Shown here: positions 2,856-17,642 of the stretch, piece after piece
Layout of the letters: each line of letters opens with the position of its first letter
Numbering within the stretch: the stretch's first letter is position 1
DNA from: Candidatus Hadarchaeota archaeon
GTDB lineage: Archaea > Hadarchaeota > Hadarchaeia > Hadarchaeales > Hadarchaeaceae
DNA length: 32,000 bases
Direction: 5' to 3'
Assembly (NCBI GenBank): GCA_964514965.1
Contig: CAZETV010000001.1
Span: 180,001 to 212,000, forward strand
Position numbers and translations under genes: made by a program
Notes under the pieces: model-generated
Seen by the model: only the letters and a program-made list of their open reading frames with translations
The model's database searches: none
What the model was told of the DNA's origin: nothing

Positions 2856-4393
2856 ACCTCAATACTACACTAGTCCGATTCAAACTTGTGTGCATCAGCT
2901 ATCATCTCAGCCAAGTACGAATTTCAATACTACACTAGTCCGATTCAAACGATATTCTCCCCTGTTGACAATCTATATATCACAGATTTCAATACTACAC
3001 TAGTCCGATTCAAACAAACGGAGCTTGGTCGGGCGCACCTATGAAAAAAAGATTTCAATACTACACTAGTCCGATTCAAACGAGGAATTCCTGTGACCGC
3101 ACTCAGGGAAGACAGTAATTTCAATACTACACTAGTCCGATTCAAACCACTTCCGTTCTGACCGCGTACTTGGCTGCAGCTCTATTTCAATACTACACTA
3201 GTCCGATTCAAACTCGGGCTTGGTCGCCTTGGGCTTCGCCTCGACCTTATTTCAATACTACACTAGTCCGATTCAAACCCCTCTCAGGGATTCAGACATC
3301 GTAATCCATAATTTCAATACTACACTAGTCCGATTCAAACGAGAACGACACTGCTTTCAGGGTGTCATTTACAACATTTCAATACTACACTAGTCCGATT
3401 CAAACTTACGGTTTAAAGAAGTCAACTACCACCCAATAAATATTTCAATACTACACTAGTCCGATTCAAACGCTCTTCCTCGCGACACCCGCGCTCGCAG
3501 TATGCCATTTCAATACTACACTAGTCCGATTCAAACGCTCTTCCTCGCGACACCCGCGCTCGTATTATGCCATTTCAATACTACACTAGTCCGATTCAAA
3601 CGACCTGTATGCAAAAGGTCTTCTCACGTATGACCAGATTTCAATACTACACTAGTCCGATTCAAACGCTATTGCGTACAGACCGTACAGTCGAGTTGAT
3701 GTGATTTCAATACTACACTAGTCCGATTCAAACGGGGCCACGTCGTTTTACGTAACGGCGTCGTCCTTCATTTCAATACTACACTAGTCCGATTCAAACG
3801 CTCTCTCTCTCATGTCATATCTATATATGACGTGTATTTCAATACTACACTAGTCCGATTCAAACCCGAGAACGGCCGGGCCGGGGCCGGCGCACGCCTT
3901 TATTTCAATACTACACTAGTCCGATTCAAACGCCGCCGTAGCCCTGCTGTTTCATGCGCAACCTGAATTTCAATACTACACTAGTCCGATTCAAACGTGA
4001 ACGCGTGGGACACTCGGGACAGGATAGTGACGATTTCAATACTACACTAGTCCGATTCAAACAACTTTACTTGCCCTCGACGTACACGGCCTTCATCAAT
4101 TTCAATACTACACTAGTCCGATTCAAACCCGAGGCTCAGGTGGTTCACGATGTCGCGCTTCTCCATTTCAATACTACACTAGTCCGATTCAAACCTTTTT
4201 ATCCCTCATGCGCCTCGCTTCGCTTTTTATTATTTCAATACTACACTAGTCCGATTCAAACCGTTTAATATTATTGTTCTTGAGCCTCCAAGTCCTCATT
4301 TCAATACTACACTAGTCCGATTCAAACGCATCTTGGACTCGTTGTCGGGGTCTGGAAACACCAATTTCAATACTACACTAGTCCGATTCAAAC
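2856..4393 (-). CRISPR. CRISPR array with 24 repeats of 30 nt and 23 spacers (32-37 nt)
   Basis: The + strand repeat is atttcaatactacactagtccgattcaaac. Repeat starts are 2856, 2921, 2986, 3052, 3118, 3184, 3249, 3311, 3376, 3442, 3507, 3572, 3638, 3704, 3770, 3836, 3902, 3967, 4033, 4099, 4165, 4232, 4298 and 4364. Only the repeat at 2856 is degenerate (acctcaat...), which marks the trailer end, so the leader is at 4394-4488 next to cas2. In the transcribed (minus) sense the repeat is GTTTGAATCGGACTAGTGTAGTATTGAAAT, ending in the ATTGAAAT-type 8-nt handle common in type I-B/I-A repeats. Track ORFs 2945..3145 and 3954..4268 are artefacts of repeat periodicity. Confidence 0.98.
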
Positions 4394-4488: not shown

Positions 4489-4764
4489 CTAAATTATGCT
4501 CGAAACTTCGGCCTTCTCGATGCCCAAGACTTCTTTCTTCATCCATTTTTGGCTAGAGACAATGAAGAAGATTATCGAGTCCTCATCCTCTTTTATTCGC
4601 TTCCGCAGCCCAACCTTGACTTGTTCTAGCCCACCCTCGCTCAGTTCGCCTTCAAATGCCGAATTCTGGATCCAGTTGAGGTGTTGCCGGAGGAAATGCC
4701 TCACTCCGTCTATCCGCTCTACAGCGACATCATAAACAACTACAACGTAAATCTTCACCACCAA
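4489..4764 (-). CDS. cas2: CRISPR-associated endoribonuclease Cas2
   Basis: About 90 aa: ..KIYVVVVYDV......LRQHLNWIQNSAFEGEL..., the typical Cas2 ferredoxin-fold pattern. The start is ambiguous (TTG 4764, GTG 4761 or GTG 4758) and overlaps the cas1 stop. Confidence 0.85.
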   Translation of the reverse strand: MVVKIYVVVVYDVAVERIDGVRHFLRQHLNWIQNSAFEGELSEGGLEQVKVGLRKRIKEDEDSIIFFIVSSQKWMKKEVLGIEKAEVSSII

Positions 4765-5765
4765 GCCTTAAATCCCTCGTATTTTTGGCCGCCAATCAGA
4801 TGCTTTATGAGTTTGTAACATTCAAGCCTTACCAATCTCTGGTATGAAACTTTTCTCTTGAGCGCTGGATGGTTGATAGTCTTCCTGAGTTTATCGTCGT
4901 ACTCCGAGATGAAGGTTCGCCTGCCCTTTTCGTTCAGGTAACAAAAATTGAGTTCATCCTGAAAATGCTTCTCGCCGACCATACGGTTGTTCACCAACTT
5001 GAAAATCGTGCGATCAACGAGAATCGGCTTGAAGATCTCGCTCAGATCTAGGCTCAGGGAAAACCTCCGCTCGCCCGGCTCGTGCAGATAGCTTATCGTG
5101 GGGTTGAGCTGGGTGTGGTAGATCTCGGACAGGGTGCTCGTGTAGAGGAGGGAATTGCCGAAAGAAATCAGGCAGTTTATCATGTTGTCGGGCGGCCTCC
5201 GCACGCGCCGCTCGAACTCGAACCCCTCCCGCAAGATTGTGTTGAAGCTCTGGTAATAGTGGTCCCTGATCCTCCCTTCCACGCCCATGAGCTCTTGCAC
5301 ATCTTTTGTACCGTCGATCTGAGTTCTCTCCTGTTCTATCGCTTCCATCATTCCGCCCACGTCCTTGCCGTGCTTCTTGTAATGGGCGAGGTTCTTGAGG
5401 ATGTTGTGGCTCGCGGACCTGATTATTTCCTTGGCGATTTCGAGCCTCCTTTCTTTGCCCAAATAATTTTCGACCTGTTTAACCACCAAAAGACCAGACA
5501 CCAGATACTCGCGCGGATAGTAGCTCCCCGAATAGAACCCGTAGTAATTGAAAAAGTGCATCGGGATGCGGTTCTGGGCGAGGAAGACCATGAGCTTCGA
5601 GTTCACGTCCAGTTCCCCGAGTGCATATATCGCCTCGACGTTCGCCACGGGCATCGGTATTTTCTCCTGCCCTGCCTCCAAGTACAGGGTGTTTTCCTTC
5701 CGCCTCAGCCTCCCGCTTTTCAGGATGTAGTAGTTGCGCTTCACCTCAACACCAACACAACTCAT
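4755..5765 (-). CDS. cas1: CRISPR-associated integrase Cas1
   Basis: 336 aa. Motifs are NTLYLE..., MGVEGRIRDHYY, SYLHEPGERRFSLSLDLSEIFKPILVDR (the conserved E/H/D acidic-site context). It overlaps the cas4 3' end by 20 nt. Confidence 0.92.
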   Translation of the reverse strand: MSCVGVEVKRNYYILKSGRLRRKENTLYLEAGQEKIPMPVANVEAIYALGELDVNSKLMVFLAQNRIPMHFFNYYGFYSGSYYPREYLVSGLLVVKQVENYLGKERRLEIAKEIIRSASHNILKNLAHYKKHGKDVGGMMEAIEQERTQIDGTKDVQELMGVEGRIRDHYYQSFNTILREGFEFERRVRRPPDNMINCLISFGNSLLYTSTLSEIYHTQLNPTISYLHEPGERRFSLSLDLSEIFKPILVDRTIFKLVNNRMVGEKHFQDELNFCYLNEKGRRTFISEYDDKLRKTINHPALKRKVSYQRLVRLECYKLIKHLIGGQKYEGFKAWW

Positions 5766-6261
5766 AATAGCTGCACTTTTTGCAATAAGACTTCTTCCCC
5801 ACTGCTGGCGGTTCCGGGCTGGAGAGCACTTGCTTTACCTCCTCCAGAGTTTCTTCGACCTCCCTTTCTCCCTCCTCAGTCAGCTCGACCTCCTTTTTTC
5901 GCCTGAGGCGTGGATAATCGATTACCCCCTTTGCGGCGACTCCCCTCCGCTTCAGCCAGTAGAGGTAGTAGAGCATTTGGCCGATGTGGGCCGCCTCTAT
6001 CTTTCGGGAGCGCTTGATGTCGTGGACCTCGTTTCCGTGCTGGAGGAAGTCTATCTTGATTGGCCCGAGGTCTATCTCCTTTGTCTTACGGGGGTATGCC
6101 GTCTCATGCAACAAACTGCCCAGCATCACCCGGTCCGAGGAGTGCTCCATCCCTAGGGAGTGCGAGAAGAGCCAGAGCTTGCGCTTGCAGACGAAGTAGT
6201 AGTTGACCTGGGTGCCAGTGTAGGTGAGTTCTGGGGAAGGGATTTTCTTCATGGATTTCAC
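5746..6261 (-). CDS. cas4: Cas4 (RecB-like PD-(D/E)xK exonuclease with a 4-Cys cluster)
   Basis: It has an N-terminal Cys (YYFVCKRKLW) and C-terminal CKKCSYYELCWC, with DIKRSRK and QMLYY motifs. The GTG at 6261 overlaps the upstream ATPase stop (GTGA). An alternative ATG start is at 6252. Confidence 0.85.
   Translation of the reverse strand: MKSMKKIPSPELTYTGTQVNYYFVCKRKLWLFSHSLGMEHSSDRVMLGSLLHETAYPRKTKEIDLGPIKIDFLQHGNEVHDIKRSRKIEAAHIGQMLYYLYWLKRRGVAAKGVIDYPRLRRKKEVELTEEGEREVEETLEEVKQVLSSPEPPAVGKKSYCKKCSYYELCWC
6167..6216. repeat. 50-nt segment of the intact cas4 5' region, duplicated at 7782-7831 (47/50 identical)
   Basis: aagagccagagcttgCgcttgcagacgaagtagtagttgacCtgGgtgcc compared with aagagccagagcttgTgcttgcagacgaagtagtagttgacTtgAgtgcc, aligned by eye. 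Confidence 0.9.
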
Positions 6262-7703
6262 GCTTTAGGCGAAGTTGAGCTGAGGATTTTCTCCAAATCC
6301 CTCAAATCGAACAGGAAGTAGCCTTCATCCCTCATTTTCTCCTTCCCATCGATTTTTCTCGCCATCAGCCCGTAGAACTCCTTCTTTCTTTTGATGAACC
6401 ATTGAACGTACCCCGCTTTCCGCTTGAGTTCATCTAAAATATTTTTTGATTCTTTCAAACTCAAATCTCGCCATTTCGTCTCAACGAACAAAATTTTCTT
6501 TTCCTCCTCGTTTAAAGCCACCACGTCGATGTCGTACACATTTTTTCCCTTTTCCGCTGCCGGTATCTTGCCCCATTGCTTCCCGAATTTTGTAAATCGG
6601 AACGGCAGCTCGGCCACCATCTTTTGAAGGAGGAATTCTCTGCACAGCTTTTCAAAACGCGCGCCGATGAATGAATTTAACTGATCCTTGACGGTTCCCT
6701 CGAAGCTCGGATCCCTTCGTTCGTAGAGGGAATAATTTTTGTAAAAGAATCTGAACCAAAAATGCAAAAGCGGATGGTTTATGAAGATGAGTCCTTTTTT
6801 CTTTCCTCTTATCAGGGGCCTGTCGAGCCTCAGGATTTCAAAATAGTTTAAAAGTTCGTCCATTTGCCTGGTTATCGAGGTCTTCTCGGCCCTCAGGTAA
6901 CTGGCTATATCGGAAAAGGAATTGTTGCCGCTCGCGACCGCTTCCAAGATTGAGTAGTACAGCCCGGACCTCCTGCCGAACTCTTGGGAGAGGATCACCT
7001 GGACCTCATCCTCCAAGACGGCATCCTTTTGGAAGAAGAAAACACGCAGGATTTCTTCCATGCCTTTCCCCTGCAACCCGTTATCCTCCATGGCGACGTA
7101 GTACCTCGGGAAACCACCGAATATGGAATAAAGAGTCACTATCTCATCCATGTTTTTGAATTTCAGTTCTCTGCACATCTCAGCGACGCTTGGGAACTCC
7201 ATTGGCTTCAGGTCTATTTTGCGCTTGACCCTGCCGTAGAGAGGTTCCTTTCGGCCCTGGAAAATCTTTTTCATCAAGCCGACGGTGGAGCCAGTCAGGA
7301 TCATCATTAACGGCTTATCCTCGTTCAGGTCGAAGTTCTTCTGGAGGGTGCCAAAAACGGATTTGTCCACGAAGGCGAAATTTTGGAACTCGTCAAACAC
7401 GACGATTCCCCGGTACCTTTTCACCAAGGTTTCAAAGAACGACTCCCAGGAATTCACAACCTCGAGCTCACTTATGATTTTCCTCTGCCTCAGGAGCCTC
7501 GAAAACTCTAGGAGAAGAGCTTCGCTCGACTTGTTCCTGTTCACGAAGAAGTACAGCCCCCTGTCTTTCATGAATTCCAGCGCCAACCTTGTCTTTCCAA
7601 CCCTTCTGGCGCCGTATATAGCCGTGGGCCAAAATTTCTGCTTTGAGAGCCCCTCGATTTCCGAGAGGGTCTTGAGTTCGGCCGCCCTATTAATAAATCT
7701 CAT
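6258..7703 (-). CDS. P-loop ATPase with wHTH and a C-terminal PD-(D/E)xK-like domain (archaeal ATPase / DUF234-type architecture, COG1672-like)
   Basis: Walker A is IYGARRVGKTRLA and Walker B is GIVVFDEFQNF. There is a central wHTH-like segment (YYSILEAVASGNNSFSDIASYLRAEKTSITRQMDEL). The C-terminal motif is VYDIDVVAL...ILFVETKWRD (D...ExK). The likely start is the ATG at 7703 (MRFINRAAELKTL); the track start GTG 7727 lies inside the operator-like palindromes. Confidence 0.75.
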   Translation of the reverse strand: MRFINRAAELKTLSEIEGLSKQKFWPTAIYGARRVGKTRLALEFMKDRGLYFFVNRNKSSEALLLEFSRLLRQRKIISELEVVNSWESFFETLVKRYRGIVVFDEFQNFAFVDKSVFGTLQKNFDLNEDKPLMMILTGSTVGLMKKIFQGRKEPLYGRVKRKIDLKPMEFPSVAEMCRELKFKNMDEIVTLYSIFGGFPRYYVAMEDNGLQGKGMEEILRVFFFQKDAVLEDEVQVILSQEFGRRSGLYYSILEAVASGNNSFSDIASYLRAEKTSITRQMDELLNYFEILRLDRPLIRGKKKGLIFINHPLLHFWFRFFYKNYSLYERRDPSFEGTVKDQLNSFIGARFEKLCREFLLQKMVAELPFRFTKFGKQWGKIPAAEKGKNVYDIDVVALNEEEKKILFVETKWRDLSLKESKNILDELKRKAGYVQWFIKRKKEFYGLMARKIDGKEKMRDEGYFLFDLRDLEKILSSTSPKA

Positions 7704-7705
7704 GT

Positions 7706-7736
7706 ATTCACCTACTGAATAATTCACTTACTGAAT
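7706..7736. promoter_or_regulatory. Two tandem 15-bp palindromes (ATTCA-N5-TGAAT) between a TATA-like element and the ATPase start codon
   Basis: The palindromes are attcacctactgaat (7706-7720) and attcacttactgaat (7722-7736), offset by 16 bp. atatatttaaat follows directly (7736-7747; TTTAAATATAT in the minus sense). Confidence 0.5.
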
Positions 7737-7781
7737 ATATTTAAATGCTTGCGTCGGCTGGTCGAGCTCGCACCAAAGATT

Positions 7782-7870
7782 AAGAGCCAGAGCTTGTGCT
7801 TGCAGACGAAGTAGTAGTTGACTTGAGTGCCCGCAAAAGTTAATCTTTCAGATAACGCCGTAAGATTCAA
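7782..7870 (-). pseudogene. cas4 5' remnant (first ~29 codons) fused to unrelated sequence, immediately after cas3
   Basis: Minus-strand translation from the TTG at 7870 (TTGA overlap with the cas3 stop) gives NLTALSERLTFAGTQVNYYFVCKHKLWLL, then unrelated IFGASSTSRRKHLNIFSK*. Intact Cas4 reads KKIPSPELTYTGTQVNYYFVCKRKLWLF. The first codons are diverged and AT-richer, and the next 50 nt are 94% identical to 6167-6216. Confidence 0.8.
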
Positions 7871-10593
7871 ATTACATTTGATTGGATTTCGTCGCCTTCT
7901 ATGTTTATCTCTTTTATTTTATTAATTCCGTACTTTTCGATGTTCTTCAAATCAATTCCATCAATTTTTAAAACAACAAACCCCTTGAAGTCTTTACGTT
8001 CTGTTAACATCCTATGTTTTTCATAAGAGAATGTTGGTAAATTGAACGAATGCAAATAAAGGATTTTCAATAATTCCCACTTATTCACTTTATTTTCTAA
8101 ATTATTATCGCCAACTTTTTCTTTCACTTTATTAATAAGAGAATCGCCATCCTTACTTTCCCAAGGTAGTTTCCAGTTATTTTTATCGTTTATAACTTCA
8201 CCAAAAGCCCTTTCTATCTCATTTTCTGATTTAGACATAATATCTGGGATAACTACCTGAAGTCCGGCGATAGTTCTAAAAATTTTTTGAGCCTCACTTC
8301 TTTTTTCAGCAGCGAAATATTTTAACCATTCTAAATTTTTCTCTATTTCTTCCACATAAATTTCTTTAAGAGATTTTCCATTTATTTTCTCTTCAAATGT
8401 CTTTTCTATCATCTCTCGCTCTTTTTCATAATGCAATTCTACACTTTCGTTGCGTTTTAATATTTCGAGGCTTTTTTCAATAACTCTCGTGTCGTATACG
8501 GCCTTTGTTCCTTTATCAGTTCCCGTAAATATAATGACGTTCGGCGCGGCGTCTTTATAATCTCCCTCTTTGTCTCTGTTTCTATAAATCCTCCCCCATC
8601 TCTGGATTTGACTATCAATCGGAGATGCCTCTGTGATTAGAATGTCAAAATCCACATCAACGGATGCTTCTACAATCTGAGTTGAAACTAGAACCAGTCT
8701 ATCGCTTTCGGTTATGAGCTTTCCATTCTCTCTTTTATTTTTTAAAGTGCATAATTTTTCTTTTACGTCTTTTATTGTCTTGTTTTTTCTTTTTTCAATT
8801 AATCTTGAATGAAGTAGGTGGAGATTACCTTTATTAACACTCAAATTTTGTGAGTCACTTTCTATACGCTTGAACAGTTCAATGGCCTTTCCCACGTTGT
8901 TGACAATTATTAGAACATTCTTGTCTCTTCCCTCATTCAAAATTTTATGTATCTCTTTGAAAGAATCTTCGTTTATTTTCAACTCAAAATTTCCATTCTC
9001 TTTTGATTGCTCATAAGAAAATAAAGTGCCATCGTTCAATCTAATTTTATGTCTCTTGAAATTGTAATTCTTTATCCTATTTCTTAAGTTTATCCATTTT
9101 TCATTTTGTAAATCTATAACACTATCTTCCCCGAAATTGCGTTTTTCAAAAAAGGGTTTAAAGTAAGGGGGGAATGTTGCGGTTATGACAAGGATGTTTC
9201 CATTGAGTGATTTTATTATTTCTAAAGTTTTGATAATGATGGCCGCCATTTCAGGATTGTAGGCTTGTATTTCGTCTATGACTATAGATGAAACTGGATA
9301 AATAGAAATCACTTTATCGGAACCGTAATATTTGAGAGAGGTAAGGAAAATTTGATCAGGTGTTGATAAAAGTATAGGGTAAGAAAAGAGTTTTGAAGAA
9401 TTTAACTTGCTTTCTACACTTAGCTCTTCGCCTTCTTTCTCTTCTTTTAAAAATTCCATAAAAGCTGTTGAATGTAAAATCCCAACGTCTTCACCTCTAC
9501 CGCCAAAATAAGGCAATTTCTCATCTGTCGCAAATCTTACAAACAGGTCATTTAGTGCAACTCTCAACGGCAAAGTGTATAACAGTTTCTTTCCATTGTC
9601 TTTTGCCCACATTAACGCAAATTCTGTTTTACCGGAGCCTGTCGGAGCCACTAAAACAATATTTTGTCTATTGAGATTTTTCAGTACATCTTTTTGCCAG
9701 AGGTTAAATTTTGCGGATTGGAATTTGATTTTGTTGATTATATTTTCTTCTAGCTTATCGAATATTTCAGAAACGGTTTTATTGGTTTCTATGCGAACTT
9801 TGCCACTGGCAGAATAATCGCATCTTCTCAGAGTACCGAGAAAAACAAGAAATTCGTGATCTGGTTTATCATTGTCTATTTCGTGGAATTTTATCAACTG
9901 TGAAACATTGTAACCTTTGCTAATTTGCTGACTGAGACTATCTAATCTGTTCATGTCAACATTATTTTCTAGTTTATTTAGGATGTCTAAAACAAAATTG
10001 CTTTTCTTTATTTCATTATCGCTTTTTAAACAAAGAATCAGATTACTAAGCAGAGATTTAATTGCATCTTTTTTACTCAGCAAAAATTCAGTATATTTTT
10101 CTATGTCCGGGTATACATCAAGAATATTTCTGAAATTTGGAATCTCGTTGACATAAAAGCTGTTGTGGTGATGTAATAAAATCGCTGTTCTGACTTTAGC
10201 ATCCCAATCGCTATTTCTCAACATTAGCTGGGAGTAAACTATTGAAAGTGCTTCATGATCATTGACATTTACTTTCCATTTTTGTCCATCTGTATCAAAA
10301 AATTTTTTTATTTGTTCCCATTCATTTTTGTATGTATTCTTTTTTTCATCGTCGCAGAAGACTTTTTTCTGAAAACTATAATCTATCTTGCCCATATCGT
10401 GTAGACTCATAGCAATAGCCAAATTTTTAAAAAACTCATCGTCAAATTTAAAGGAAATTTTCTCTCGGTTCTTATTTACAAACTCCTGAAACTGAATAGC
10501 TCTCAATAAAACTTCCTTTAAATGATCTTTTAGTAAGAAATTGTTGCCTTCTTTTGATTTAGCCCTCAGGCAATCAAGTATTTTCTCTGTCAT
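7867..10593 (-). CDS. cas3: Cas3, HD nuclease fused to an SF2 helicase
   Basis: 908 aa. HD motifs are LKDHL, SLHDMGKID, AILLHHHN and RRCDYSAS. Helicase motifs are VLVAPTGSGKTEFAL (I), IVIDEIQAY (II), VITATFP (III) and VSTQIVEASVDVDFD...QRWGRIYR (V/VI). The gene is strongly AT-rich. Confidence 0.92.
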   Translation of the reverse strand: MTEKILDCLRAKSKEGNNFLLKDHLKEVLLRAIQFQEFVNKNREKISFKFDDEFFKNLAIAMSLHDMGKIDYSFQKKVFCDDEKKNTYKNEWEQIKKFFDTDGQKWKVNVNDHEALSIVYSQLMLRNSDWDAKVRTAILLHHHNSFYVNEIPNFRNILDVYPDIEKYTEFLLSKKDAIKSLLSNLILCLKSDNEIKKSNFVLDILNKLENNVDMNRLDSLSQQISKGYNVSQLIKFHEIDNDKPDHEFLVFLGTLRRCDYSASGKVRIETNKTVSEIFDKLEENIINKIKFQSAKFNLWQKDVLKNLNRQNIVLVAPTGSGKTEFALMWAKDNGKKLLYTLPLRVALNDLFVRFATDEKLPYFGGRGEDVGILHSTAFMEFLKEEKEGEELSVESKLNSSKLFSYPILLSTPDQIFLTSLKYYGSDKVISIYPVSSIVIDEIQAYNPEMAAIIIKTLEIIKSLNGNILVITATFPPYFKPFFEKRNFGEDSVIDLQNEKWINLRNRIKNYNFKRHKIRLNDGTLFSYEQSKENGNFELKINEDSFKEIHKILNEGRDKNVLIIVNNVGKAIELFKRIESDSQNLSVNKGNLHLLHSRLIEKRKNKTIKDVKEKLCTLKNKRENGKLITESDRLVLVSTQIVEASVDVDFDILITEASPIDSQIQRWGRIYRNRDKEGDYKDAAPNVIIFTGTDKGTKAVYDTRVIEKSLEILKRNESVELHYEKEREMIEKTFEEKINGKSLKEIYVEEIEKNLEWLKYFAAEKRSEAQKIFRTIAGLQVVIPDIMSKSENEIERAFGEVINDKNNWKLPWESKDGDSLINKVKEKVGDNNLENKVNKWELLKILYLHSFNLPTFSYEKHRMLTERKDFKGFVVLKIDGIDLKNIEKYGINKIKEINIEGDEIQSNVI

Positions 10594-11406
10594 CTAAAGC
10601 CATCCATTATCAAGTATTTTAAACTCTGCACCATTGACGTTATAAACTTCCATTCTTGTTTCACTATTCAAAATAATACTATAATCATTTCCTGTATAAA
10701 TTACAGTTCCAAATTTTGGTTTTCTTTCTGTTTTTTTAGTTATTTCAGATTTTGATTTAACCGGAGCGTCGCCATTCATAAATCTTACCTCTACTGGTAT
10801 GGAATAAACCGGGTATTTCTGTTTTTTAAGTCGAAACTCTTTTTCCTTAATGTAAGTGGGATATTTTATCTTAACGTCTGTAATATTTTCAACGGTATCT
10901 GCCGCATTTACTTCTTGCACATGTTCTATGAAAACAACATCTTCACTTCTTCCTAACGACAATACTTTCTTCGGATGTTCTAAAGATTCTTTTATTTTGC
11001 CAATTAACTTTTCCTCCCCTCTAATAAAAAGAAATATACGACCGTTGAAAAGTTCCTGTTGATGCACAGGTGATCTTTGAGAGGTTATACCTTGCCCATA
11101 TAATGGCAAATTTTGATTTACGAGAACAAGTTTCCCATCCTTTTGTTGTAACTCTGTTTTCCCCTTTATTAAATTTTGATAGTTCCAAAAAGCATTTTCA
11201 AATCCGCCATGCATGCTAACTTTTAATTTCCACCAATTATCAATACCAAATCCGTTGCCATACCAATCGTCACATGCATTTTGGAGCATTCCAATTACAG
11301 TAGATTTTGGTGGTAATGGATAAGTTTGTGCGTAATAGAAAGTAAAGGGGTTTCGATATTGAGCAAATGGCTGAAATAATTCAATAAAAAGTATTTTTTC
11401 TACCAT
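10594..11406 (-). CDS. cas5: Cas5 (Cas5t/Cas5h-like)
   Basis: The N-terminus FIELFQPFAQYRNPFTFYYAQTYPLPPKSTVIGMLQNA matches the Cas5 signature (FR.P....TYPLPPPST.IG). The gene abuts the cas3 start. Confidence 0.8.
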   Translation of the reverse strand: MVEKILFIELFQPFAQYRNPFTFYYAQTYPLPPKSTVIGMLQNACDDWYGNGFGIDNWWKLKVSMHGGFENAFWNYQNLIKGKTELQQKDGKLVLVNQNLPLYGQGITSQRSPVHQQELFNGRIFLFIRGEEKLIGKIKESLEHPKKVLSLGRSEDVVFIEHVQEVNAADTVENITDVKIKYPTYIKEKEFRLKKQKYPVYSIPVEVRFMNGDAPVKSKSEITKKTERKPKFGTVIYTGNDYSIILNSETRMEVYNVNGAEFKILDNGWL

Positions 11407-11438
11407 TCTGCCACCATAAAGATGATACTGATGATTAT

Positions 11439-12437
11439 TTAACCCAAAAATTTCTCAACTTTCTCAATAACATTTTTTTCATTTAATTCTTTTGTATCTA
11501 TTTTTGAATAAACGCTACACAACTCTTTTCTATTAAATACACTAACATTTTCACCATTCTCTCCTAACGCTATGTTAAAGGAAGGTATTATGTTATCTTC
11601 GACTTCATTCTCTATAATTTCTAAATCGCCGTCTTTTTTGTACTTTCTTTTTATCTTGTATTGTGTCTTTCTTTCTAATCTTATTTTATTCAAATAGGAT
11701 TCGTATTTTCCATTATTATATAGACCTAAAACAATTAACCATGGCGATAAATCTTCTCTTCGACCTTTAATGTCTCTCTTAAGATTTAGAATTGTCTCGA
11801 TAAATTTTATAATCCTTTCCTTAATAACTTCGTCGCCTACCTTGATATCCCCAATTTCTTCTTTACCATGCTCATCTTTTAAAAAATTACCAACTCTATT
11901 AACATCGATTGTAATATTATAAATATAGAAATCTGGTTTCTCCTCTATTGTGACAGGATTACTGCCTTCTCCACCAGCCCTCTTCATCATGTCCAAATTG
12001 GCCATTGTATGGGTATCCAAATTGTAAGGTGTTAGTGAGATAGCATGACTTATCTTTACGGGGGAAACTCTTGTTAGTGCTGCCTGTCCTTCTTTTGTTA
12101 TCATAAAACCAAATAAATCAAATTCAGGAAAACCAGCAAAAACGTTTTGGTTAATTTCGTTTAGTCCAGCTACGCCACCTTCTCTAACTACAAGTTCCTC
12201 AGGTCCTGCTAGTTTCCATGTCTCTGGGAAAAGGTGATTTGCCCAGTGCAAAATACTATATCTGAGCGCATATCTGCTCACTAATGCGTATTGTCTGCCA
12301 TCCCACTTCGTTATCTTCTTGAGCGGTTGATAGTTAGTTCCGCCACCCCAATCGTAATTCAGAGAACTTCCATAGAAAACGATGTCTAGAACTATAAACT
12401 TTTTATCACTTTTTTTATTTTCATTTGTTTTATTCAT
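11439..12437 (-). CDS. cas7: Cas7 (Csa2/Cst2/DevR-type backbone subunit)
   Basis: GSSLNYDWGGGTNYQPLKKI....YALVSRYALRYSILH is the typical Cas7 I-A/I-B N-terminal pattern. The gene overlaps the upstream small ORF by 8 nt. Confidence 0.8.
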   Translation of the reverse strand: MNKTNENKKSDKKFIVLDIVFYGSSLNYDWGGGTNYQPLKKITKWDGRQYALVSRYALRYSILHWANHLFPETWKLAGPEELVVREGGVAGLNEINQNVFAGFPEFDLFGFMITKEGQAALTRVSPVKISHAISLTPYNLDTHTMANLDMMKRAGGEGSNPVTIEEKPDFYIYNITIDVNRVGNFLKDEHGKEEIGDIKVGDEVIKERIIKFIETILNLKRDIKGRREDLSPWLIVLGLYNNGKYESYLNKIRLERKTQYKIKRKYKKDGDLEIIENEVEDNIIPSFNIALGENGENVSVFNRKELCSVYSKIDTKELNEKNVIEKVEKFLG

Positions 12438-12795
12438 TTTCCTTACCTTTGACCTTGTTTTGATATGTACTCATGATACCAATAATTATTGAATAAGCAA
12501 GATTTATAAACGCTTCATCTGGCAAAATATCATAGTTTTTTTCTAGCTCATCCCACAATTTTTTGAAATTTTCCTTTGGTTTATTAATAGACCTCAAAAG
12601 CAGGTAGAAGAATCTATTTTGATTTTTATTTTTTACGGACTCCAGTAAATCAAAAACTAGTCTTTGTTTGTAATTATCAGATTCGCTTATAAAAGAATCT
12701 TTAGCAGCATTTTTAAATTCCCACAACTTTAATTCTTTAGACTTTTCTCCAATTTTTAGTTCCCACACCGCTTGTTTTATCTCATCATCCATCAT
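12430..12795 (-). CDS. 121-aa predicted all-helical protein between cas8 and cas7; candidate standalone small subunit (Cas11/Csa5-like). Function unproven.
   Basis: It is tightly coupled on both sides (ATGA overlap with the cas8 stop, 8-nt overlap with the cas7 start) and has the same AT-rich composition as the interference module. Its size and position match csa5 in csa5-cas7-cas5-cas3 arrangements. I recognise no sequence motif. Confidence 0.45.
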   Translation of the reverse strand: MMDDEIKQAVWELKIGEKSKELKLWEFKNAAKDSFISESDNYKQRLVFDLLESVKNKNQNRFFYLLLRSINKPKENFKKLWDELEKNYDILPDEAFINLAYSIIIGIMSTYQNKVKGKENE

Positions 12796-14546
12796 CTATA
12801 CACCAGACCTGCTGTTAAGCATAATGCATACCTTGGCCAGCTTAATTCATTATCTACTATTTTATTAAACACCCAATTTAAAAAGCCTTTGTTGATAATT
12901 TCTTTGCGGTTGTTTAGAGATTTAAGTAAAACAATAAGAAAACCAGCTTTATCATTTGCGTATAAAGAATCAAGAAGAAGATAAGCAATTTTCTCTCTCA
13001 TTTTCAAATCTGGGATTAGTCTTTTTGTCTCTTGGGTTGAGTAATAAAAAGTACTTGGGAATGTCCTTTTGACTTGAGTTACCATTTCTCTATAATTCTC
13101 AGAGAAAAAGATTTGAGAAAATAACAGACTACTATTTTTTTCCTTAAACTCCAAAATTACGGCCTCAATCAAAAGAGCATAAAATACGGAGTAATTTGGG
13201 TACCTACTCTCGTCGATAGAAACTTTTACGTGTTGCAAAACCAATGGGTAAAGAGGTTTTCCTTTTATGAATTCTTTTAGAAGCCATACATATTTATCCC
13301 CCTTAAGATATTTAGGTCCAACTTGAATTCTTTTGTTCATCGCATCTCTAATCCTGTCGTCTAAAACAATAGAAGCTCGAAGTTTCGGAATGCCTATAAA
13401 TTCTACATCTTTTAACTTTAGATTTTCTATTCCACCGAATTCTATTATATACATGTTCTCTAAAGAAAAATCTACCTTTTTCTCAATAATAGTGTCGATT
13501 ATAGCAGTCCAAGTTATTTTGAACATATCTGTCCTTCTCCCTTTCCTTTCTTTATATAGAGCGAATTTTTTGTTAATTTCGTATGAACTTTCTAATAAGT
13601 TGGTATAGAACATCAAGTTTCTCCCTTCGATAAACTGGAAAGAGTTTCCAAATGATAAAAGCAATAAGTATAATGGTTGTTTAACATTTAACCACTCCTC
13701 AACCATAATTACTTTCGGGAGATCGGTATAACCGATGTTTGGAAATTCACCAGGCGAATACAAAAAAGGGTTTATCGTGGAATCTGCTCGAATTTCATAA
13801 GTCAAACCATCTTTCTTTTTCTTTTCGCTTATTTTAGAAGCAAATTTACGTAAATTTGAATAATCTTCTTTTAGCAAATACCAAAGGTAAACGAATGAAG
13901 TATACAGATCTTTTTTAGGATTATAGATGAAAAAATTCCTATGGTCTTTAGGTAATTTCAGATCACAGCTATGAATAAGCGACTTTATATCTTCTTTTTT
14001 TTCTTCAACGTTTACTAGAATGCCAAAAATTTTGTTTTCTATATTTTGTTTAAACTCATCTAATTCTTTTATTAGATTTTTCTCTTTGTTAGAAATCTCA
14101 TTATTGCATTGTATGATTTCATTTTTGAATTGAGTGATTTTTTTATTTTCCTTTTCAATTTTCTTATCTTGAGATTTGAGTTTAGATGGCTTTTCATTAG
14201 ATTTAATTTTCTTACTCTCGTTAATTAAATCTCTCAATTTTTTCTCAGATTCTCTTAATTTGACTCGTAAGCCTTTTTTTGGGTCTGTAATTTTTTTTCT
14301 TATGCCGCTAATTTCACTTCTAACTGTTCTAATTCTAGAATGGTAGAATAAGTACGCAAACGGAAAATATCCATAATAAATCAATTCCTTATTTTCCCTA
14401 ATCCTCTTTCGCAGCTCTTCCAAATCCCATCCATAGACTTCTTCCATCAAATTTACAAATCCGAGAATTCCTGCATCTATAAACCAATTACCTGTGAATT
14501 GTAGTGTATTATGACTTGATTCAACAATTTTTGTTCCCATATTCAT
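12792..14546 (-). CDS. cas8: Cas8 large subunit (Cas8b/Cst1-like) with a Lys/Glu/Asn-rich coiled-coil-like insert
   Basis: It occupies the first position of the cas8-cas7-cas5-cas3 operon. The N-terminal FTGNWFIDAGILGFVNL resembles the conserved N-terminal motif of Cas8b-like proteins. The likely start is the ATG at 14546 (GGTGA 4 nt upstream); the track TTG start at 14570 lies inside the cas6 remnant. Confidence 0.7.
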   Translation of the reverse strand: MNMGTKIVESSHNTLQFTGNWFIDAGILGFVNLMEEVYGWDLEELRKRIRENKELIYYGYFPFAYLFYHSRIRTVRSEISGIRKKITDPKKGLRVKLRESEKKLRDLINESKKIKSNEKPSKLKSQDKKIEKENKKITQFKNEIIQCNNEISNKEKNLIKELDEFKQNIENKIFGILVNVEEKKEDIKSLIHSCDLKLPKDHRNFFIYNPKKDLYTSFVYLWYLLKEDYSNLRKFASKISEKKKKDGLTYEIRADSTINPFLYSPGEFPNIGYTDLPKVIMVEEWLNVKQPLYLLLLSFGNSFQFIEGRNLMFYTNLLESSYEINKKFALYKERKGRRTDMFKITWTAIIDTIIEKKVDFSLENMYIIEFGGIENLKLKDVEFIGIPKLRASIVLDDRIRDAMNKRIQVGPKYLKGDKYVWLLKEFIKGKPLYPLVLQHVKVSIDESRYPNYSVFYALLIEAVILEFKEKNSSLLFSQIFFSENYREMVTQVKRTFPSTFYYSTQETKRLIPDLKMREKIAYLLLDSLYANDKAGFLIVLLKSLNNRKEIINKGFLNWVFNKIVDNELSWPRYALCLTAGLVYR

Positions 14547-14550
14547 GTTC

Positions 14551-14704
14551 TCACCCCACCATGAAACCAAACCCCAGCGAGTTCTCCTCCCTGAACCCCG
14601 CGTCCAACCCGAACTGAATCACATCTTGCTTTTTCCCCGTCCAGATAATAGGAGAACCCCCAGATGGAACCAAAAATCTCGCCATTCATTCCGAACCCAA
14701 CTCT
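14551..14704 (-). pseudogene. cas6 3'-terminal remnant (about 51 codons, frameshifted) abutting the cas8 start
   Basis: Minus-strand translation gives RVGFGMNGEIFGSIWGFSYYLDGEKARCD, then a +1 frameshift, then IQFGLDAGFREENSLGFGFMVG*. Intact Cas6 reads HVVFGGKEVKVLGSLWRFMFSYLDEMRREILQFGLDAGFGELNSLGFGFMNVVR*. Between ctggac and cagttc there are 22 nt here and 21 nt in the intact gene. About 80% nt identity over the last 20 codons (by eye). An in-frame stop lies just upstream at 14705-14707. Confidence 0.85.
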
Positions 14705-15246
14705 TCAACTCTCCTTTTCAGCCCGGCCAGCTCATCCTCCACTCCCATCTCCCTGCAGATCTCTTCCAGATACTCTAGATTCAGCTTCCCGAGCTGCCTT
14801 ACGAATATCCCCTCCGCATCTTTTAAATCTTGCTCGCTCCCGAACACCAGCTTGTTGGCGATGATGTCCTCGGGAGAAGCGATGTAAATATCGGTCCCCT
14901 TGTATTTGAACGATGTCCTCCTCTCGAAAGTGCGCTTGTCCATTTCGTTGCAAATTCCTTTAATATCCAACCTGAACATCGACCTCTTGTCCTGAACGAT
15001 GCAGTGGAACCGTTCTTTCAACGCCCTCCTCAGGCCCTCAGCGCTTGCAAAAAAATCATTCCGACTCAAGAACTCGGCCAGCTTCGGCGTGTCCTCCTCT
15101 TTGATCTGCAGAATCAGGTCTATGTCCATCGTGGTCCTCGAAAGACCGTGGAAGTTCACCACCAAGCCACCTACCATGACGTAACCTATGCGTGCCCTGC
15201 CAAGGAACCCGCACACGAGCGACAATATCTCATCTATTTCCCGCAC
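14686..15246 (-). CDS. Minimal nucleotidyltransferase-fold protein (Pol-beta superfamily, toxin-like)
   Basis: 186 aa. IGYVMVGGLVVNFHGLSRTTMDIDLIL fits the GG..(x)..HG..R.T.DIDL NTase active-site pattern. It has a GTG start that overlaps the upstream 65-aa ORF by 17 nt. Its last 7 codons overlap the cas6 remnant in another frame. Confidence 0.65.
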   Translation of the reverse strand: MREIDEILSLVCGFLGRARIGYVMVGGLVVNFHGLSRTTMDIDLILQIKEEDTPKLAEFLSRNDFFASAEGLRRALKERFHCIVQDKRSMFRLDIKGICNEMDKRTFERRTSFKYKGTDIYIASPEDIIANKLVFGSEQDLKDAEGIFVRQLGKLNLEYLEEICREMGVEDELAGLKRRVEELGSE

Positions 15247-15427
15247 TTTTACTCGCCTCGTGGATTTCTACCGCAAACTTGATCAGGTCCAATCCCTGCT
15301 CGAAGGTTTCCTCCCCTGAGAAACGCCGGGCGCGAACGGCATCCCGCCTCAGCTCCCTGGCCCGGACCTCCTTCACCCTCCTCCTGAACTCCTCGAGGTC
15401 CCTACGTTTGAACGCGCTGGCCTTCAT
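15230..15427 (-). CDS. 65-aa Arg/Glu-rich helical protein, putative partner (antitoxin-like) of the NTase
   Basis: It has an ATG start and overlaps the NTase start. The C-terminal half SGEETFEQGLDLIKFAVEIHE resembles the small partners often found upstream of minimal NTases (from memory). No search was run. Confidence 0.5.
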   Translation of the reverse strand: MKASAFKRRDLEEFRRRVKEVRARELRRDAVRARRFSGEETFEQGLDLIKFAVEIHEASKSAGNR

Positions 15428-15478: not shown

Positions 15479-15495
15479 CTCACCACGTTCATAAA
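15479..15495. repeat. 17-bp perfect direct repeat (ctcaccacgttcataaa), copy 1; identical to the last codons of intact cas6
   Basis: Exact match to 16870-16886. In the minus sense it encodes FMNVVR. Confidence 0.85.
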
Positions 15496-15527: not shown

Positions 15528-16736
15528 TCAGATCACGGCCAAAAATAGGGGTAGGGTGTCCTCATCCAGTACCTCCACGCTTTTGGGGTACTTCCTGTGC
15601 GGTTTCCCCGCCTTCACCTCTATTTTCAAATCGGCCGCCATGCAATCTATCTCATAGGAATTTCTGAAGTAGAAAACTTCCCCAAATTTTCTGGACAAAT
15701 GTGACTGGACCACCCACTCATACAGAGCGCCCTTCAGAAACTCCTGCCCGCTCCAGAGGGACAAACTCCTAGCCATGAAGGGGTCGATGAAAAATACTTT
15801 CTTCTCCTTTCGGTGCAGGATCTTTTCCCCCTCCTTACATCTCGCCAAATCCAGGATGAGCAGACTTTTCAGCAGCTCCAGATATTCGGCCACGGTTTTG
15901 TAGGAATACCCGGAGGTATCCTTGGATATCGTGGTATAGCCGAGCGGGGAAGGGGCCTTTTTGAATATCGAGGAAAGCACCTCCCTCGATAGGGAAACGC
16001 TCCTGCCCAACCTCAGGACCTCCCCCTCGAACGCCCTTATGAAATCCTCATCCGCCCTTGGGTCCCCGTTTATCGAGAGCGGAAATCCACCTTTCTTCAG
16101 ATAATCCCCAAACGCTCGCTTTATCTCCTCTTCCTGGACGGCGGCTTTTTTCGCGTCCTTGTTCGCGTCCCCGGTGGTCTTTATCTTTACACCGTGGACC
16201 TCCAAGAATTCCCTGAAACTCAAGGGGTAAACAGTTATCTCCCTCCCCATTCCCCTCCGCCCGGGAAAAAACTCCACATCCCCCCTCAGTTTTAGGGAGG
16301 AGGAACCTGTTATGGTCAAGACATCGTCCTTGAACGCGCCCAGGTCCACGTATCCTTTTACGACCCTCCACCAGCCTTTTACCCCTGTGACCTCGTCCAA
16401 AAAAATAAAGCTAGAACCATGGCCGAGAGACCTTCTGAATTCCAGATAAGCATCCATAACTTTTCTCAGCGAGTATGCGTCCGGGGAGAGGTCACAGTTG
16501 AAGTAAAATATCCTCTCCGCCTCTACCTTTTTCAGCAGATCGTCGACCATGAGCTTTAATCCAGTTGTTTTGCCTATCTGCCTCGGCCCGATGACGAAGT
16601 TCAATGAAAAGGACTTCAGCGAGATGTCTTTTATCCAGTTCGGCACCCATTTAATCCTCATCCCTTCCCATTTCGCAAAGTGATAATCTTTTTCCCCCTT
16701 CCACCAAGGGTTATGCCTTATCACGAGGTTTCTCAT
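15528..16736 (-). CDS. P-loop ATPase with a C-terminal PD-(D/E)xK-like domain (AAA_14 + DUF4143-type architecture, COG1373-like)
   Basis: The N-terminal ...RHNPWWKGE is typical of this family. Walker A is VIGPRQIGKTTGL and Walker B is SFIFLDEVTG. The C-terminal motif is YEIDCMAADLKIEVKAGK (D...ExK). The gene has its own AT-rich upstream region with TATA-like ttataag/ctataaa elements (16737-16790). Confidence 0.75.
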   Translation of the reverse strand: MRNLVIRHNPWWKGEKDYHFAKWEGMRIKWVPNWIKDISLKSFSLNFVIGPRQIGKTTGLKLMVDDLLKKVEAERIFYFNCDLSPDAYSLRKVMDAYLEFRRSLGHGSSFIFLDEVTGVKGWWRVVKGYVDLGAFKDDVLTITGSSSLKLRGDVEFFPGRRGMGREITVYPLSFREFLEVHGVKIKTTGDANKDAKKAAVQEEEIKRAFGDYLKKGGFPLSINGDPRADEDFIRAFEGEVLRLGRSVSLSREVLSSIFKKAPSPLGYTTISKDTSGYSYKTVAEYLELLKSLLILDLARCKEGEKILHRKEKKVFFIDPFMARSLSLWSGQEFLKGALYEWVVQSHLSRKFGEVFYFRNSYEIDCMAADLKIEVKAGKPHRKYPKSVEVLDEDTLPLFLAVI

Positions 16737-16865
16737 GATAGAATTTATAGTTCTAACTACTTATAAACATTTAGAAACCTAACTTCCATTATTGAACGGC
16801 TCCGTCCTGAATCCCAATTCTCCCTCTTAACTTCATCTCTCTGCCACGTTGATATTTTTGAACCG

Positions 16866-17642
16866 TCACCTCACCACGTTCATAAATCCAAACCCGAGCG
16901 AGTTCAGCTCTCCGAACCCGGCGTCCAGTCCGAACTGCAATATTTCCCTCCGCATTTCGTCCAGATAACTGAACATGAAACGCCAAAGGGAGCCCAGAAC
17001 CTTCACCTCCTTTCCCCCGAACACAACGTGGGCGCAGGCCGTGTTCATAAACTCGAACTGCTCGAATATCGGGGACTCCTCAATCGCCTTGCCGTAAAAC
17101 TCGCGATATTTCTTGAACAGATTTTCCTCCAGCTGCCTGACGAACGGCTCGAACGGCCATTGCTCCCTCCAGTAGATGTAATCGTAATCCTTGGGCGGGA
17201 CGATGCCGTACTTCTCAAATTTCTCCTTGGGTATGCGGAGCACGATGGGCGTGCCGGTGATCAGCCTGCAAGACCTGCCGATTCTGGGCTCGAGCGGCTT
17301 CACCGACTCAACGCCGAACGACATGTCCCCGATGTTAACGGGCACCCGCTCTTCCATTATGCGCTCCAATTTGTCGTTCAGGAGTTTTATGATCCCGACC
17401 TCCGGGGAGGATATCAGAAATTGCCTGAGCTCACCCTTCTCCATGCTCTCGGACGGATTCTCTTTCGTGCCCTTTGGTGGAAAGATGTTCGAGAAGCAGA
17501 AGAACTTGTACCCCCGCCTGTCGTGAAGTTTGACATACGGCGTTTCATTGAGCAGGCCATAGATGAAACCCTGGAGCTTGCGGTGATATTTCAATTCATA
17601 CGCTTGGTTCTTCAACGACTTCAATTTGATAAGGAGCCTCAT
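16866..17642 (-). CDS. cas6: Cas6 crRNA-processing endoribonuclease
   Basis: 258 aa. The N-terminus is MRLLIKLKS...YELKYHRKLQGFIYGLL. The C-terminal glycine-rich loop is GLDAGFGELNSLGFGFMNV, the Cas6 hallmark. G+C is like cas1/cas4, not like the AT-rich interference genes. Confidence 0.88.
   Translation of the reverse strand: MRLLIKLKSLKNQAYELKYHRKLQGFIYGLLNETPYVKLHDRRGYKFFCFSNIFPPKGTKENPSESMEKGELRQFLISSPEVGIIKLLNDKLERIMEERVPVNIGDMSFGVESVKPLEPRIGRSCRLITGTPIVLRIPKEKFEKYGIVPPKDYDYIYWREQWPFEPFVRQLEENLFKKYREFYGKAIEESPIFEQFEFMNTACAHVVFGGKEVKVLGSLWRFMFSYLDEMRREILQFGLDAGFGELNSLGFGFMNVVR
16870..16886. repeat. 17-bp perfect direct repeat, copy 2 (inside the cas6 3' end)
   Basis: ctcaccacgttcataaa, identical to 15479-15495. 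Confidence 0.85.

Follow-up and report, generated by a model that had tools for sequence, protein, structure and literature searches.

CRISPR-Cas adaptation and effector modules are said to shuffle, as reportedly found in comparative genomics by Makarova, Koonin and colleagues; such module swapping has been proposed, but its joints are rarely seen. Archaeal integrative elements that target tRNA genes use SSV- or pTN3-type integrases, and a partial copy of the target, often the 3' half of the tRNA, flanks the insert without disruption of the target gene. Nobusato et al. reportedly described in 2000 how restriction-modification gene units enter a genome by insertion with long target duplication. 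Furuta et al. (2010; PMC2853133) documented restriction-modification units inserted with a long target duplication, and no archaeal case passed their screen.

The locus described here lies in a 32,000-nt stretch of hadarchaeal DNA (the window, to which coordinates refer unless a locus is named), and it resembles each of these systems in part. As in module shuffling, an adaptation module (cas4-cas1-cas2 and the array) and an interference module of different origin stand in one locus. Here, however, the junction is resolved to a few nucleotides, at the start of a cas4 5' patch and after a cas6 3' remnant, and the joint in the conserved cas4 start recurs in independent loci of the same cas4 lineage. 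As in long target duplication, direct repeats of more than 30 bp enclose a nuclease-encoding, defence-type unit that has neither a transposase nor an integrase, and the repeats consist of local sequence, vary in length by locus and often overlap gene ends or tRNAs. In contrast to the restriction-modification cases, the cargo is a one-gene AAA+ ATPase/PD-(D/E)XK unit or another small cassette and the host is archaeal; insertion is at a cas gene 5' end, where different cargo types share the same edges. Unlike the tRNA-targeting elements, the inserts are single small cassettes; the insert shows no integrase, and PF00589 has no match in the genome. Integron cassette arrays serve as an analogy only: there, too, a fixed site gathers and exchanges cassettes of one or two genes (one related locus, L183, shows tandem occupancy), but here neither IntI nor attC is present and the boundaries are the duplicated 5' end of the target gene. 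We consider it probable that the cas4 fragment described below is a non-functional relic recording two recombination events at the conserved cas4 5' end.

A cas4 fragment between cas3 and an ATPase gene

A type I-B system comprises a Cst2/DevR-type Cas7, Cas5t, a Cas3 helicase with an HD domain, Cas1b, Cas4, Cas2, Cas6 and a large subunit. The source genome (G000; 1.28 Mb in 3 contigs, GC 48.3%, 94.5% complete) has matches to all of TIGR02585, TIGR01895, TIGR01587 with TIGR01596, TIGR03641, PF01930, PF09827 and PF01881, which define the type. Metagenome assemblies make up most of the data, and the source genome may itself be one. The locus is organized as follows.

16866-17642, minus strand: cas6, intact copy
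15528-16736, minus strand: AAA_14/DUF4143 ATPase gene (PADLOC PDC-S01)
14686-15427, minus strand: 65-aa ORF and DUF6036 nucleotidyltransferase gene
14551-14685, minus strand: cas6 3' remnant of 44 codons (Pfam Cas_Cas6_C, sequence)
12792-14546, minus strand: cas8, assigned by position only (584-aa large subunit without a family match)
12430-12795, minus strand: gene for a 121-aa protein without a family match
11439-12437, minus strand: cas7/Cst2 (family match)
10594-11406, minus strand: cas5t (family match)
7867-10593, minus strand: cas3 HD-helicase gene (family match)
7724-7870, minus strand: cas4 stub ORF of 48 codons (partial Pfam Cas_Cas4 match)
7832-7870, minus strand: first part of the stub, AT-rich foreign cas4 5' end of 13 codons, TTG NLTALSERLTFA
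7782-7831, minus strand: second part of the stub, resident cas4 5' remnant GTQVNYYFVCKHKLWL, the upstream duplicate
7704-7781, minus strand: left arm of the cassette, with a spacer of ~30 nt, a TATA-like element TTTAAATATA and two tandem palindromes (sequence)
6258-7703, minus strand: ATPase_2/DUF234 gene, 481 aa (Pfam PF01637 and PF03008)
5746-6252, minus strand: intact cas4, 168 aa (Pfam Cas_Cas4, E=3e-58)
4755-5765, minus strand: cas1, type I-B Cas1b (TIGR03641, 478 bits)
4489-4764, minus strand: cas2 (PF09827)
2856-4393, minus strand: CRISPR array of 24 repeats GTTTGAATCGGACTAGTGTAGTATTGAAAT (repeat search), the sole array with this repeat in the genome

The stub ORF translates as NLTALSERLTFAGTQVNYYFVCKHKLWLL. 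Its start codon TTG overlaps the TGA of cas3 (TTGA), and this overlap is the one feature that suggests a putative translational coupling of the stub to cas3. On the minus strand, 47 of the 50 nucleotides of segment 7782-7831 are identical to 6167-6216 (repeat search and alignment; E=4e-19 by BLAST in a 600x600 nt space), and the stretch occurs in only two copies in the whole 1.28-Mb genome. The homology to cas4 stops after ...CTCTGGCTCTT (7782), and the frame then crosses the ATPase promoter and reaches a stop at 7724. The ATPase start was corrected to the ATG at 7703, which gives 481 aa. The intact cas4 starts with the ATG at 6252, 5 nt past the ATPase stop, and encodes 168 aa, as in its homologs. 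Thus, the initial annotation was right in describing a cas4 5' fragment after cas3, with the peptide given above, the TTGA overlap and an abrupt end of homology, and in placing the ATPase gene and its promoter exactly between the two cas4 copies.

Cas4 (PF01930 / TIGR00372) is defined by a full RecB-like nuclease domain and four cysteine ligands of an Fe-S cluster. The downstream gene corresponds to this definition (196.7 bits), whereas the stub, with one cysteine and no nuclease motifs, does not. The stub matches only positions 2-26 of the 160 positions of the Cas_Cas4 profile (E=4.9e-4), and its 20.6 bits fall short of the profile cut-off of 22.7 bits. The single cysteine, the lack of nuclease motifs and the partial match below the cut-off together identify it as a remnant, presumably without a function of its own.

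The conserved 50 nt of the stub are preceded by diverged codons, a mosaic that had been taken for the trace of recombination or gene conversion within cas4. The breakpoint is supported, because the GC content falls from ~50% to ~31% and the homology to a related genome (G019) ends, only a few bases apart, at about 7832/7833. Gene conversion, however, is not needed: in the same stretch, intact cas4 genes of this lineage share 46-48 of the 50 nucleotides between genomes, so that 47/50 within one genome equals the identity between genomes. The mosaic is explained by a foreign 5' part of 39 nt rather than by recent copying of the 50 nt, and the recombination is best resolved not as a single event but as two events of different age.

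The relative age of the two events follows from G019, which belongs to another genus of the same family. Its DNA matches window positions 6144-7833 as a single HSP of 1693 nt with 82.6% identity that spans the 50-nt stub, the left arm, the ATPase gene and the cas4 start; upstream, the two genomes also share their neighbouring gene, which is FrhB/FdhB-like (60% amino acid identity). The G019 stub begins with GTG AAA AAA ATC and agrees with the resident cas4 5' end at 24 of 36 positions. The stub-ATPase junction is thus of common ancestry in the two genomes, which implies that the duplication predates the swap of the interference block. The comparison points to an ancestral state in which a segment from the cas4 ATG to about codon 30 was followed by the cassette and then by a complete cas4.

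Could the 50-nt copy instead have arisen recently and in this genome only, by duplication or gene conversion that placed a piece of the intact cas4 onto an unrelated or already diverged sequence behind cas3? The identity of 47/50 would fit, as would the higher identity of the window stub to the cas4 of the same genome (47/50) than to the stub of G019 (38/50). However, the collinearity of stub, left arm and ATPase in G019 marks the junction as ancestral, and the stub is equally close to the cas4 genes of other genomes (47/50 to G030, 46/50 to G024), in a stretch that is very conserved. In addition, both upstream copies, in the window and in G019, have CAC where all intact cas4 genes have CG(C/A/G); this one codon constitutes the shared-derived evidence for stub orthology at the nucleotide level. 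We therefore regard a recent copy as very improbable and retain the older, inherited duplication.

The locus in G019 has itself decayed. Its cas4 (L027 6869-7020) breaks off after about 36-50 codons, and a degenerate CRISPR repeat GTTTGAATCGGGCTTGTGTGGCATTGAAAT follows directly. A single deletion removed the remainder of cas4, together with cas1, cas2 and the greater part of the array, but left the ATPase cassette intact.

The foreign interference block and its edges

The block from cas8 to cas3 (7867-14546; cas8, the small gene, cas7, cas5 and cas3) has a GC content of 0.29-0.34 and a GC3 of 0.24-0.31, compared with a GC3 of 0.59-0.73 in cas2, cas1, cas4, the ATPase gene and the nucleotidyltransferase gene (0.65-0.73 without cas2) and a genome GC of 0.483. 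The GC shift is spread over a few tens of bases around 7832/7833 and around the cas8 ATG (14546), and the BLAST homology to G019 ends at 7833, near the GC step. No Cas3 homolog was found in the 40 relatives searched. The best homologs anywhere are 50-58% identical, and the named ones among them come from metagenome-assembled genomes of DPANN archaea (Nanopusillaceae, Aenigmatarchaeota, Pacearchaeota) and Thermoplasmata. These results show that the interference block from cas8 to cas3 is of foreign origin.

The first 39 nt of the stub (7832-7870) go with this block. Their GC content is 0.36, and they have no homology to the resident cas4 5' end (10/36) and none to G019 either. In a Nanopusillaceae contig (L154), the gene order is cas6-x-cas8-small-cas7-cas5-cas3-cas4-cas1, the canonical arrangement of the donor type, with cas4 directly after cas3. 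The Cas4 that adjoins the closest Cas3 homolog (L152) starts with ..NNLTFTGTQINYFFICKRKLWLF and resembles ERLTFAGTQ of the stub, with the common pattern ..LTF(A/T)GTQ. The low GC content, the absence of resident homology and the L152-like N-terminus together indicate that codons 1-13 of the stub are the start of the foreign block's own cas4.

The other edge of the foreign block is marked by the cas6 3' remnant (14551-14685), which is of resident origin. It has a high GC content, is ~75% identical to the end of the intact cas6 and matches positions 100-123 of Pfam Cas_Cas6_C (E=9e-4). The remnant starts at an ATG that overlaps the stop codon of the nucleotidyltransferase gene (TGAATG) and ends 4 nt before the ATG of the low-GC cas8. 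At this right-hand junction we found no obvious homology patch and no common repeat, and therefore this join may have been illegitimate.

In the more recent of the two proposed events, the resident locus would accordingly have been joined to a foreign, AT-rich I-B block, which ran from cas8 to cas3 and included the first 13 codons of the cas4 that belonged to it. On one side, a crossover would have occurred at the start of the conserved GTQVNYYFVCK of the stub; the other join lies right after the cas6 3' remnant. The swap would have used the conserved cas4 patch as homology, and by replacing the first 39 nt of the stub it would have created the mosaic. We also considered a Campbell-type integration of a circle with the ATPase gene and a cas4 patch into a low-GC locus. 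This model predicts a low GC content for the remainder of cas4 and for cas1 and cas2, and it was rejected for this genome because these sequences are GC-rich (GC3 0.59-0.73).

Mosaic stubs are not confined to the source genome. In L136, the AT-rich 5' part of the stub is contiguous with an AT-richer cas3 (GC 0.32-0.39 upstream versus 0.51-0.54 downstream), and stubs of the same kind were recognized by reading the sequences of L184 and L188, the GC content having been measured in L136 only. This recurrence suggests that interference blocks were exchanged at the cas4 patch more than once. It also bears on the reading that chimeric assembly, with the CRISPR loci of two organisms joined at a common cas4 sequence, produced the low-GC block and the mosaic structure of the stub. 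The lineage is known mainly from metagenome-assembled genomes, and a conserved cas4 could in principle cause contigs to be misjoined. However, the switch lies at the start of the conserved patch, where the donor-type and the resident sequence share few bases, and a second clean junction would be needed between the cas6 remnant and the cas8 start, where there is no common repeat. Moreover, the same mosaic is present in independent assemblies (L136/L188, L184), and the contig is 1.03 Mb long. A chimera is hardly credible on these grounds, and we treat the block as a genuine part of the genome.

Two small genes of the region have counterparts elsewhere. The closest donor-type loci (L153, L154) have genes for 117-131 aa proteins at the same place as the gene for the 121-aa protein (12430-12795), which indicates that it is a conserved member of this I-B variant; possibly, it encodes a separate small subunit. 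Between cas6 and cas8, the 65-aa ORF overlaps the DUF6036/AbiEii-like nucleotidyltransferase gene (14686-15427), an arrangement that resembles a toxin-antitoxin pair.

The ATPase cassette and its flanking repeats

The two cas4 copies bracket a one-gene cassette of 1.5 kb. The protein that it encodes is an AAA+/STAND-like NTPase and carries, in addition to a winged helix, a PD-(D/E)XK-like domain at its C-terminus, which includes the residues D393...E408-x-K410. Pfam PF01637 (ATPase_2) and PF03008 (DUF234) both score above their cut-offs, and DUF234 is listed as a PD-(D/E)XK family (PMC3424549). The Walker A and B motifs and the D..ExK residues are invariant in the family alignment. In the AF2 model (pLDDT 88), the N-terminal 360 residues resemble the archaeal ATPases 2qen and 2fna, which are the best fold matches, and Orc/Cdc6/STAND proteins, and a C-terminal alpha/beta domain follows. 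The fold search is dominated by the ATPase part, so that the C-terminal nuclease domain is not separately resolved. A match to a TnsC sequence in the PDB (E=4e-7) covers only the generic AAA+ core, and we did not take it as evidence of transposition.

Both ATPases of the locus match PADLOC families strongly. Residues 2-442 of the DUF234 protein match PDC-S27 (E=2.7e-33), in line with the sequence criterion for this family, and the DUF4143 protein matches PDC-S01 (E=2.5e-37). These are candidate families inferred from context, and embedding in a cas operon is not part of their definition. By virtue of the PDC-S27 match, the DUF234 ATPase gene is a candidate defence gene. A literature search on DUF234, COG1672, COG1373, PF01637, PF03008 and DUF4143 did not turn up a paper that connects these families with mobility or with CRISPR.

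Two tandem palindromes, ATTCAC(C/T)TACTGAAT (7706-7736), separate the TATA-like element from the ATG of the ATPase gene. The promoter and the palindromes are kept in G019 and also in a 53%-identical paralog at a non-CRISPR site in G011, and a second clade of DUF234 ATPases (clade B, described below) has a different palindrome, TTTACTTTAAAGTAAA, at the same place. The palindromes likely form an autoregulatory operator. With 5 nt between the ATPase stop and its own start, cas4 probably depends on the ATPase promoter for transcription, and we infer that cas4-cas1-cas2 are now driven from the cassette. The cassette promoter may thus control the expression of the adaptation genes, a possible regulatory link. 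By eye, DUF234 cassettes of either clade seem to share a short motif resembling ACC(C)NGCC at a distance of 10-20 nt inwards from their left edge; it was seen in the left arms of the window (~7750-7765), L027, L028, L053, L136 and L150.

Direct repeats around members of the ATPase family are not restricted to cas4. A flanking repeat of at least 27 bits was present for 7 of the 13 hadarchaeal ATPase homologs, compared with 3 of 241 control ORFs of similar size from the source genome (Fisher p=1.6e-8), and for 12 of 58 metagenomic homologs, compared with 3 of 77 shifted controls (p=0.004), p-values that overstate the case because the loci are partly related. The repeats are 22 to 135 nt long and in many cases correspond to the end of an adjoining gene (5' for the gene downstream, 3' for the gene upstream). 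At independent sites, the inserts are tightly bounded and consist of about 75 nt of promoter, the ORF and at most 50 nt thereafter. The paralog in G011 lies between repeats of 36 nt and 32 nt of the end of a neighbouring gene, the ATPase gene in G039 has a 28-nt repeat, and a pair of 95%-identical ATPase genes in G010 and G045 lies between a tRNA gene and a partial copy of it (89 nt and 57 nt). Two other repeats were set aside: a 119-nt repeat in L108 may reflect paralogous flanking genes rather than a duplication, and a control match of 68 bits in G000 is explained by paralogous neighbours of a sulfite-reductase-like gene.

In G000, no flanks matching the insertions of G011 and G039 were found that could represent empty sites. 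The tRNA gene used in G010 and G045 is present in G000, with a different cassette behind it: a HEPN and minimal nucleotidyltransferase (MNT) gene pair follows the tRNA and is itself followed by a partial copy of that tRNA (G000:C1:403571-404854; L179 2571-3855). The tRNA site therefore looks like a second slot with exchangeable cargo, HEPN-MNT in G000 and DUF234 in G010 and G045. The second ATPase of the window is flanked in a similar way. The DUF4143 cassette (15528-16794) lies between perfect 17-nt direct repeats TTTATGAACGTGGTGAG (15479-15495 and 16870-16886), which equal the terminal codons of cas6 and, if a gap is allowed, can be extended to about 45 nt. In G015, a copy of this cassette with 78% identity occupies an unrelated site, where the flanking repeat of 10 nt is not significant.

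The tRNA sites have the classic geometry of att sites, with the ATPase genes of G010 and G045 flanked by the tRNA on one side and, on the other, by a partial copy that extends from its anticodon region to its 3' end, and with the HEPN-MNT pair in front of a partial copy of the same tRNA in G000. This raises the alternative that the repeats are attL and attR of an integrase-mediated, site-specific integration, the ATPase gene being what is left of a larger element. Such an element would have a tyrosine or serine recombinase in it or beside it, and none is present in the window locus. Furthermore, Phage_integrase PF00589 (E<=0.01) has no match, not even one of the XerA type, in the whole 94.5%-complete genome G000, whereas 14 of 14 control genomes had matches (the search covered tyrosine recombinases), and the gene tables and ORFs inspected around the slots likewise showed no integrase. 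The tight bounds of the inserts at independent sites and the variable repeat length also speak against it, and we judge decay from an integrase-borne element to be unlikely.

The entry of the cassette instead fits the pattern of insertion with long target duplication. The direct repeats in the window exceed 30 bp (50 nt at 94%) and are unique, with two genome copies only, and the insert contains no mobile-element gene but only the promoter and the ATPase gene. The ancestral duplication was about 90 nt long, as seen in G019 and G018. In the older of the two proposed events, a cassette of a promoter and one AAA+ ATPase/PD-(D/E)XK gene (DUF234, PDC-S27) would have entered the start of cas4, with the outcome that ~90 nt of the cas4 5' end, reaching from the ATG to about codon 30, stood on both sides of the cassette. 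The downstream copy would head the intact cas4, and the upstream copy would be the stub. This arrangement would then have served as a reusable slot, with the same two edges around different cargo or nothing. The ATPase family may thus offer a way to study long target duplication, a form of gene mobility without a mechanistic explanation, in archaea.

Cargo at the cas4 start

Homologs of the ATPase that are flanked by cas4 5' fragments, which the initial annotation had suggested looking for, do exist in other genomes and loci (G019, G024, G018, L136 and L183), and in L184 a cas4 5' fragment accompanies an ATPase of a different family. Throughout this cas4 lineage, the edges of the slot are the cas4 ATG and about codon 30, and in the alignment all stubs end within about 10 nt of each other, past the codons for KLWLF. 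The occupants in the loci other than the window and G019 are as follows.

G024, G018, L136: DUF234 clade B ATPase between stub and cas4
L184 (Cas4 71%): cas8-cas7-cas5-cas3, 60-nt stub (93%), AAA_14/DUF4143 ATPase, cas4-cas1-cas2
L183 (Cas4 75%): stub, gene for a 161-aa protein, second stub, DUF234 ATPase on the opposite strand, cas4
L188: decayed stub, MNT-HepT pair, cas4
G030, L180-182: ATPase remnant with an internal deletion, or small ORFs, in the interval from cas6 to cas4, without interference genes
L185, L186: empty, with an effector gene followed directly by cas4 and no stub; cas4 68-79% identical

The clade B ATPases are 29-32% identical to the window ATPase and 75-90% identical to each other, and the flanking repeat in L136 is 59 nt long (93%). 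A search for a near-isogenic empty site of the source genome found empty slots only in the cas4 relatives of 68-79% identity. The clearest view of the edges comes from L188 and L136, in which the cas3 end and the stub are 95% and cas4 is 87% identical: the homology breaks exactly at the end of the stub and resumes exactly at the cas4 ATG, and the cargo between them differs. These loci are not all independent, as the window and G019 represent one event and G024, G018, L136 and L188 share a slot. The identical edges for five types of cargo could reflect one old, inherited slot in which the cargo was replaced, rather than repeated insertion. Possibly, later spread took place by homologous recombination in the conserved cas4 patch, a route that is plausible between genomes and leaves the first entry of each cargo type unexplained. 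The start of cas4 thus appears as a hot spot inside a cas operon at which small candidate defence cassettes with identical edges are exchanged, and a cas4 5' stub upstream of an inserted gene provides a signature that can be searched for.

An ATPase-nuclease gene stands immediately upstream of cas4 of this lineage in many loci, and the distance of 5 nt between the ATPase stop and the cas4 start suggests co-transcription. Both observations would be expected if the ATPase had long served the adaptation module as a functional accessory gene, perhaps by regulating or assisting Cas4-Cas1-Cas2, and if the stub were an incidental scar of operon assembly. However, the cargo is interchangeable, comprising two DUF234 clades of ~30% identity, both orientations, DUF4143, MNT-HepT and the gene for the 161-aa protein, or it is absent altogether. 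Sister ATPases occur at non-CRISPR sites between other direct repeats (tRNA, gene ends), and the cassette persists where CRISPR-Cas has decayed (G019, G024 and G018). An accessory role of this kind is therefore improbable, and we favor the interpretation of the stub as a relic of cassette entry and the later block swap.

A bolder reading, which we put forward tentatively and consider possible rather than probable, would unite the two slots. A cassette-shuffling system, either integrase-free or dependent on a novel enzyme, would use the start of cas4 (~90 nt) and the 3' portion of one tRNA as attachment sites and would move small defence-type cassettes (PDC-S27 and PDC-S01 ATPase-nucleases, MNT-HepT) into and out of fixed archaeal slots. 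When the cas4 slot is occupied, the adaptation genes would come under the autoregulated promoter of the cassette, and the same patch would be the landing pad for the exchange of interference modules.

The DUF6036 gene, which in the window follows the DUF4143 cassette, recurs in related surroundings: in L183, L184 and G050, it adjoins cas6 or precedes the effector genes.
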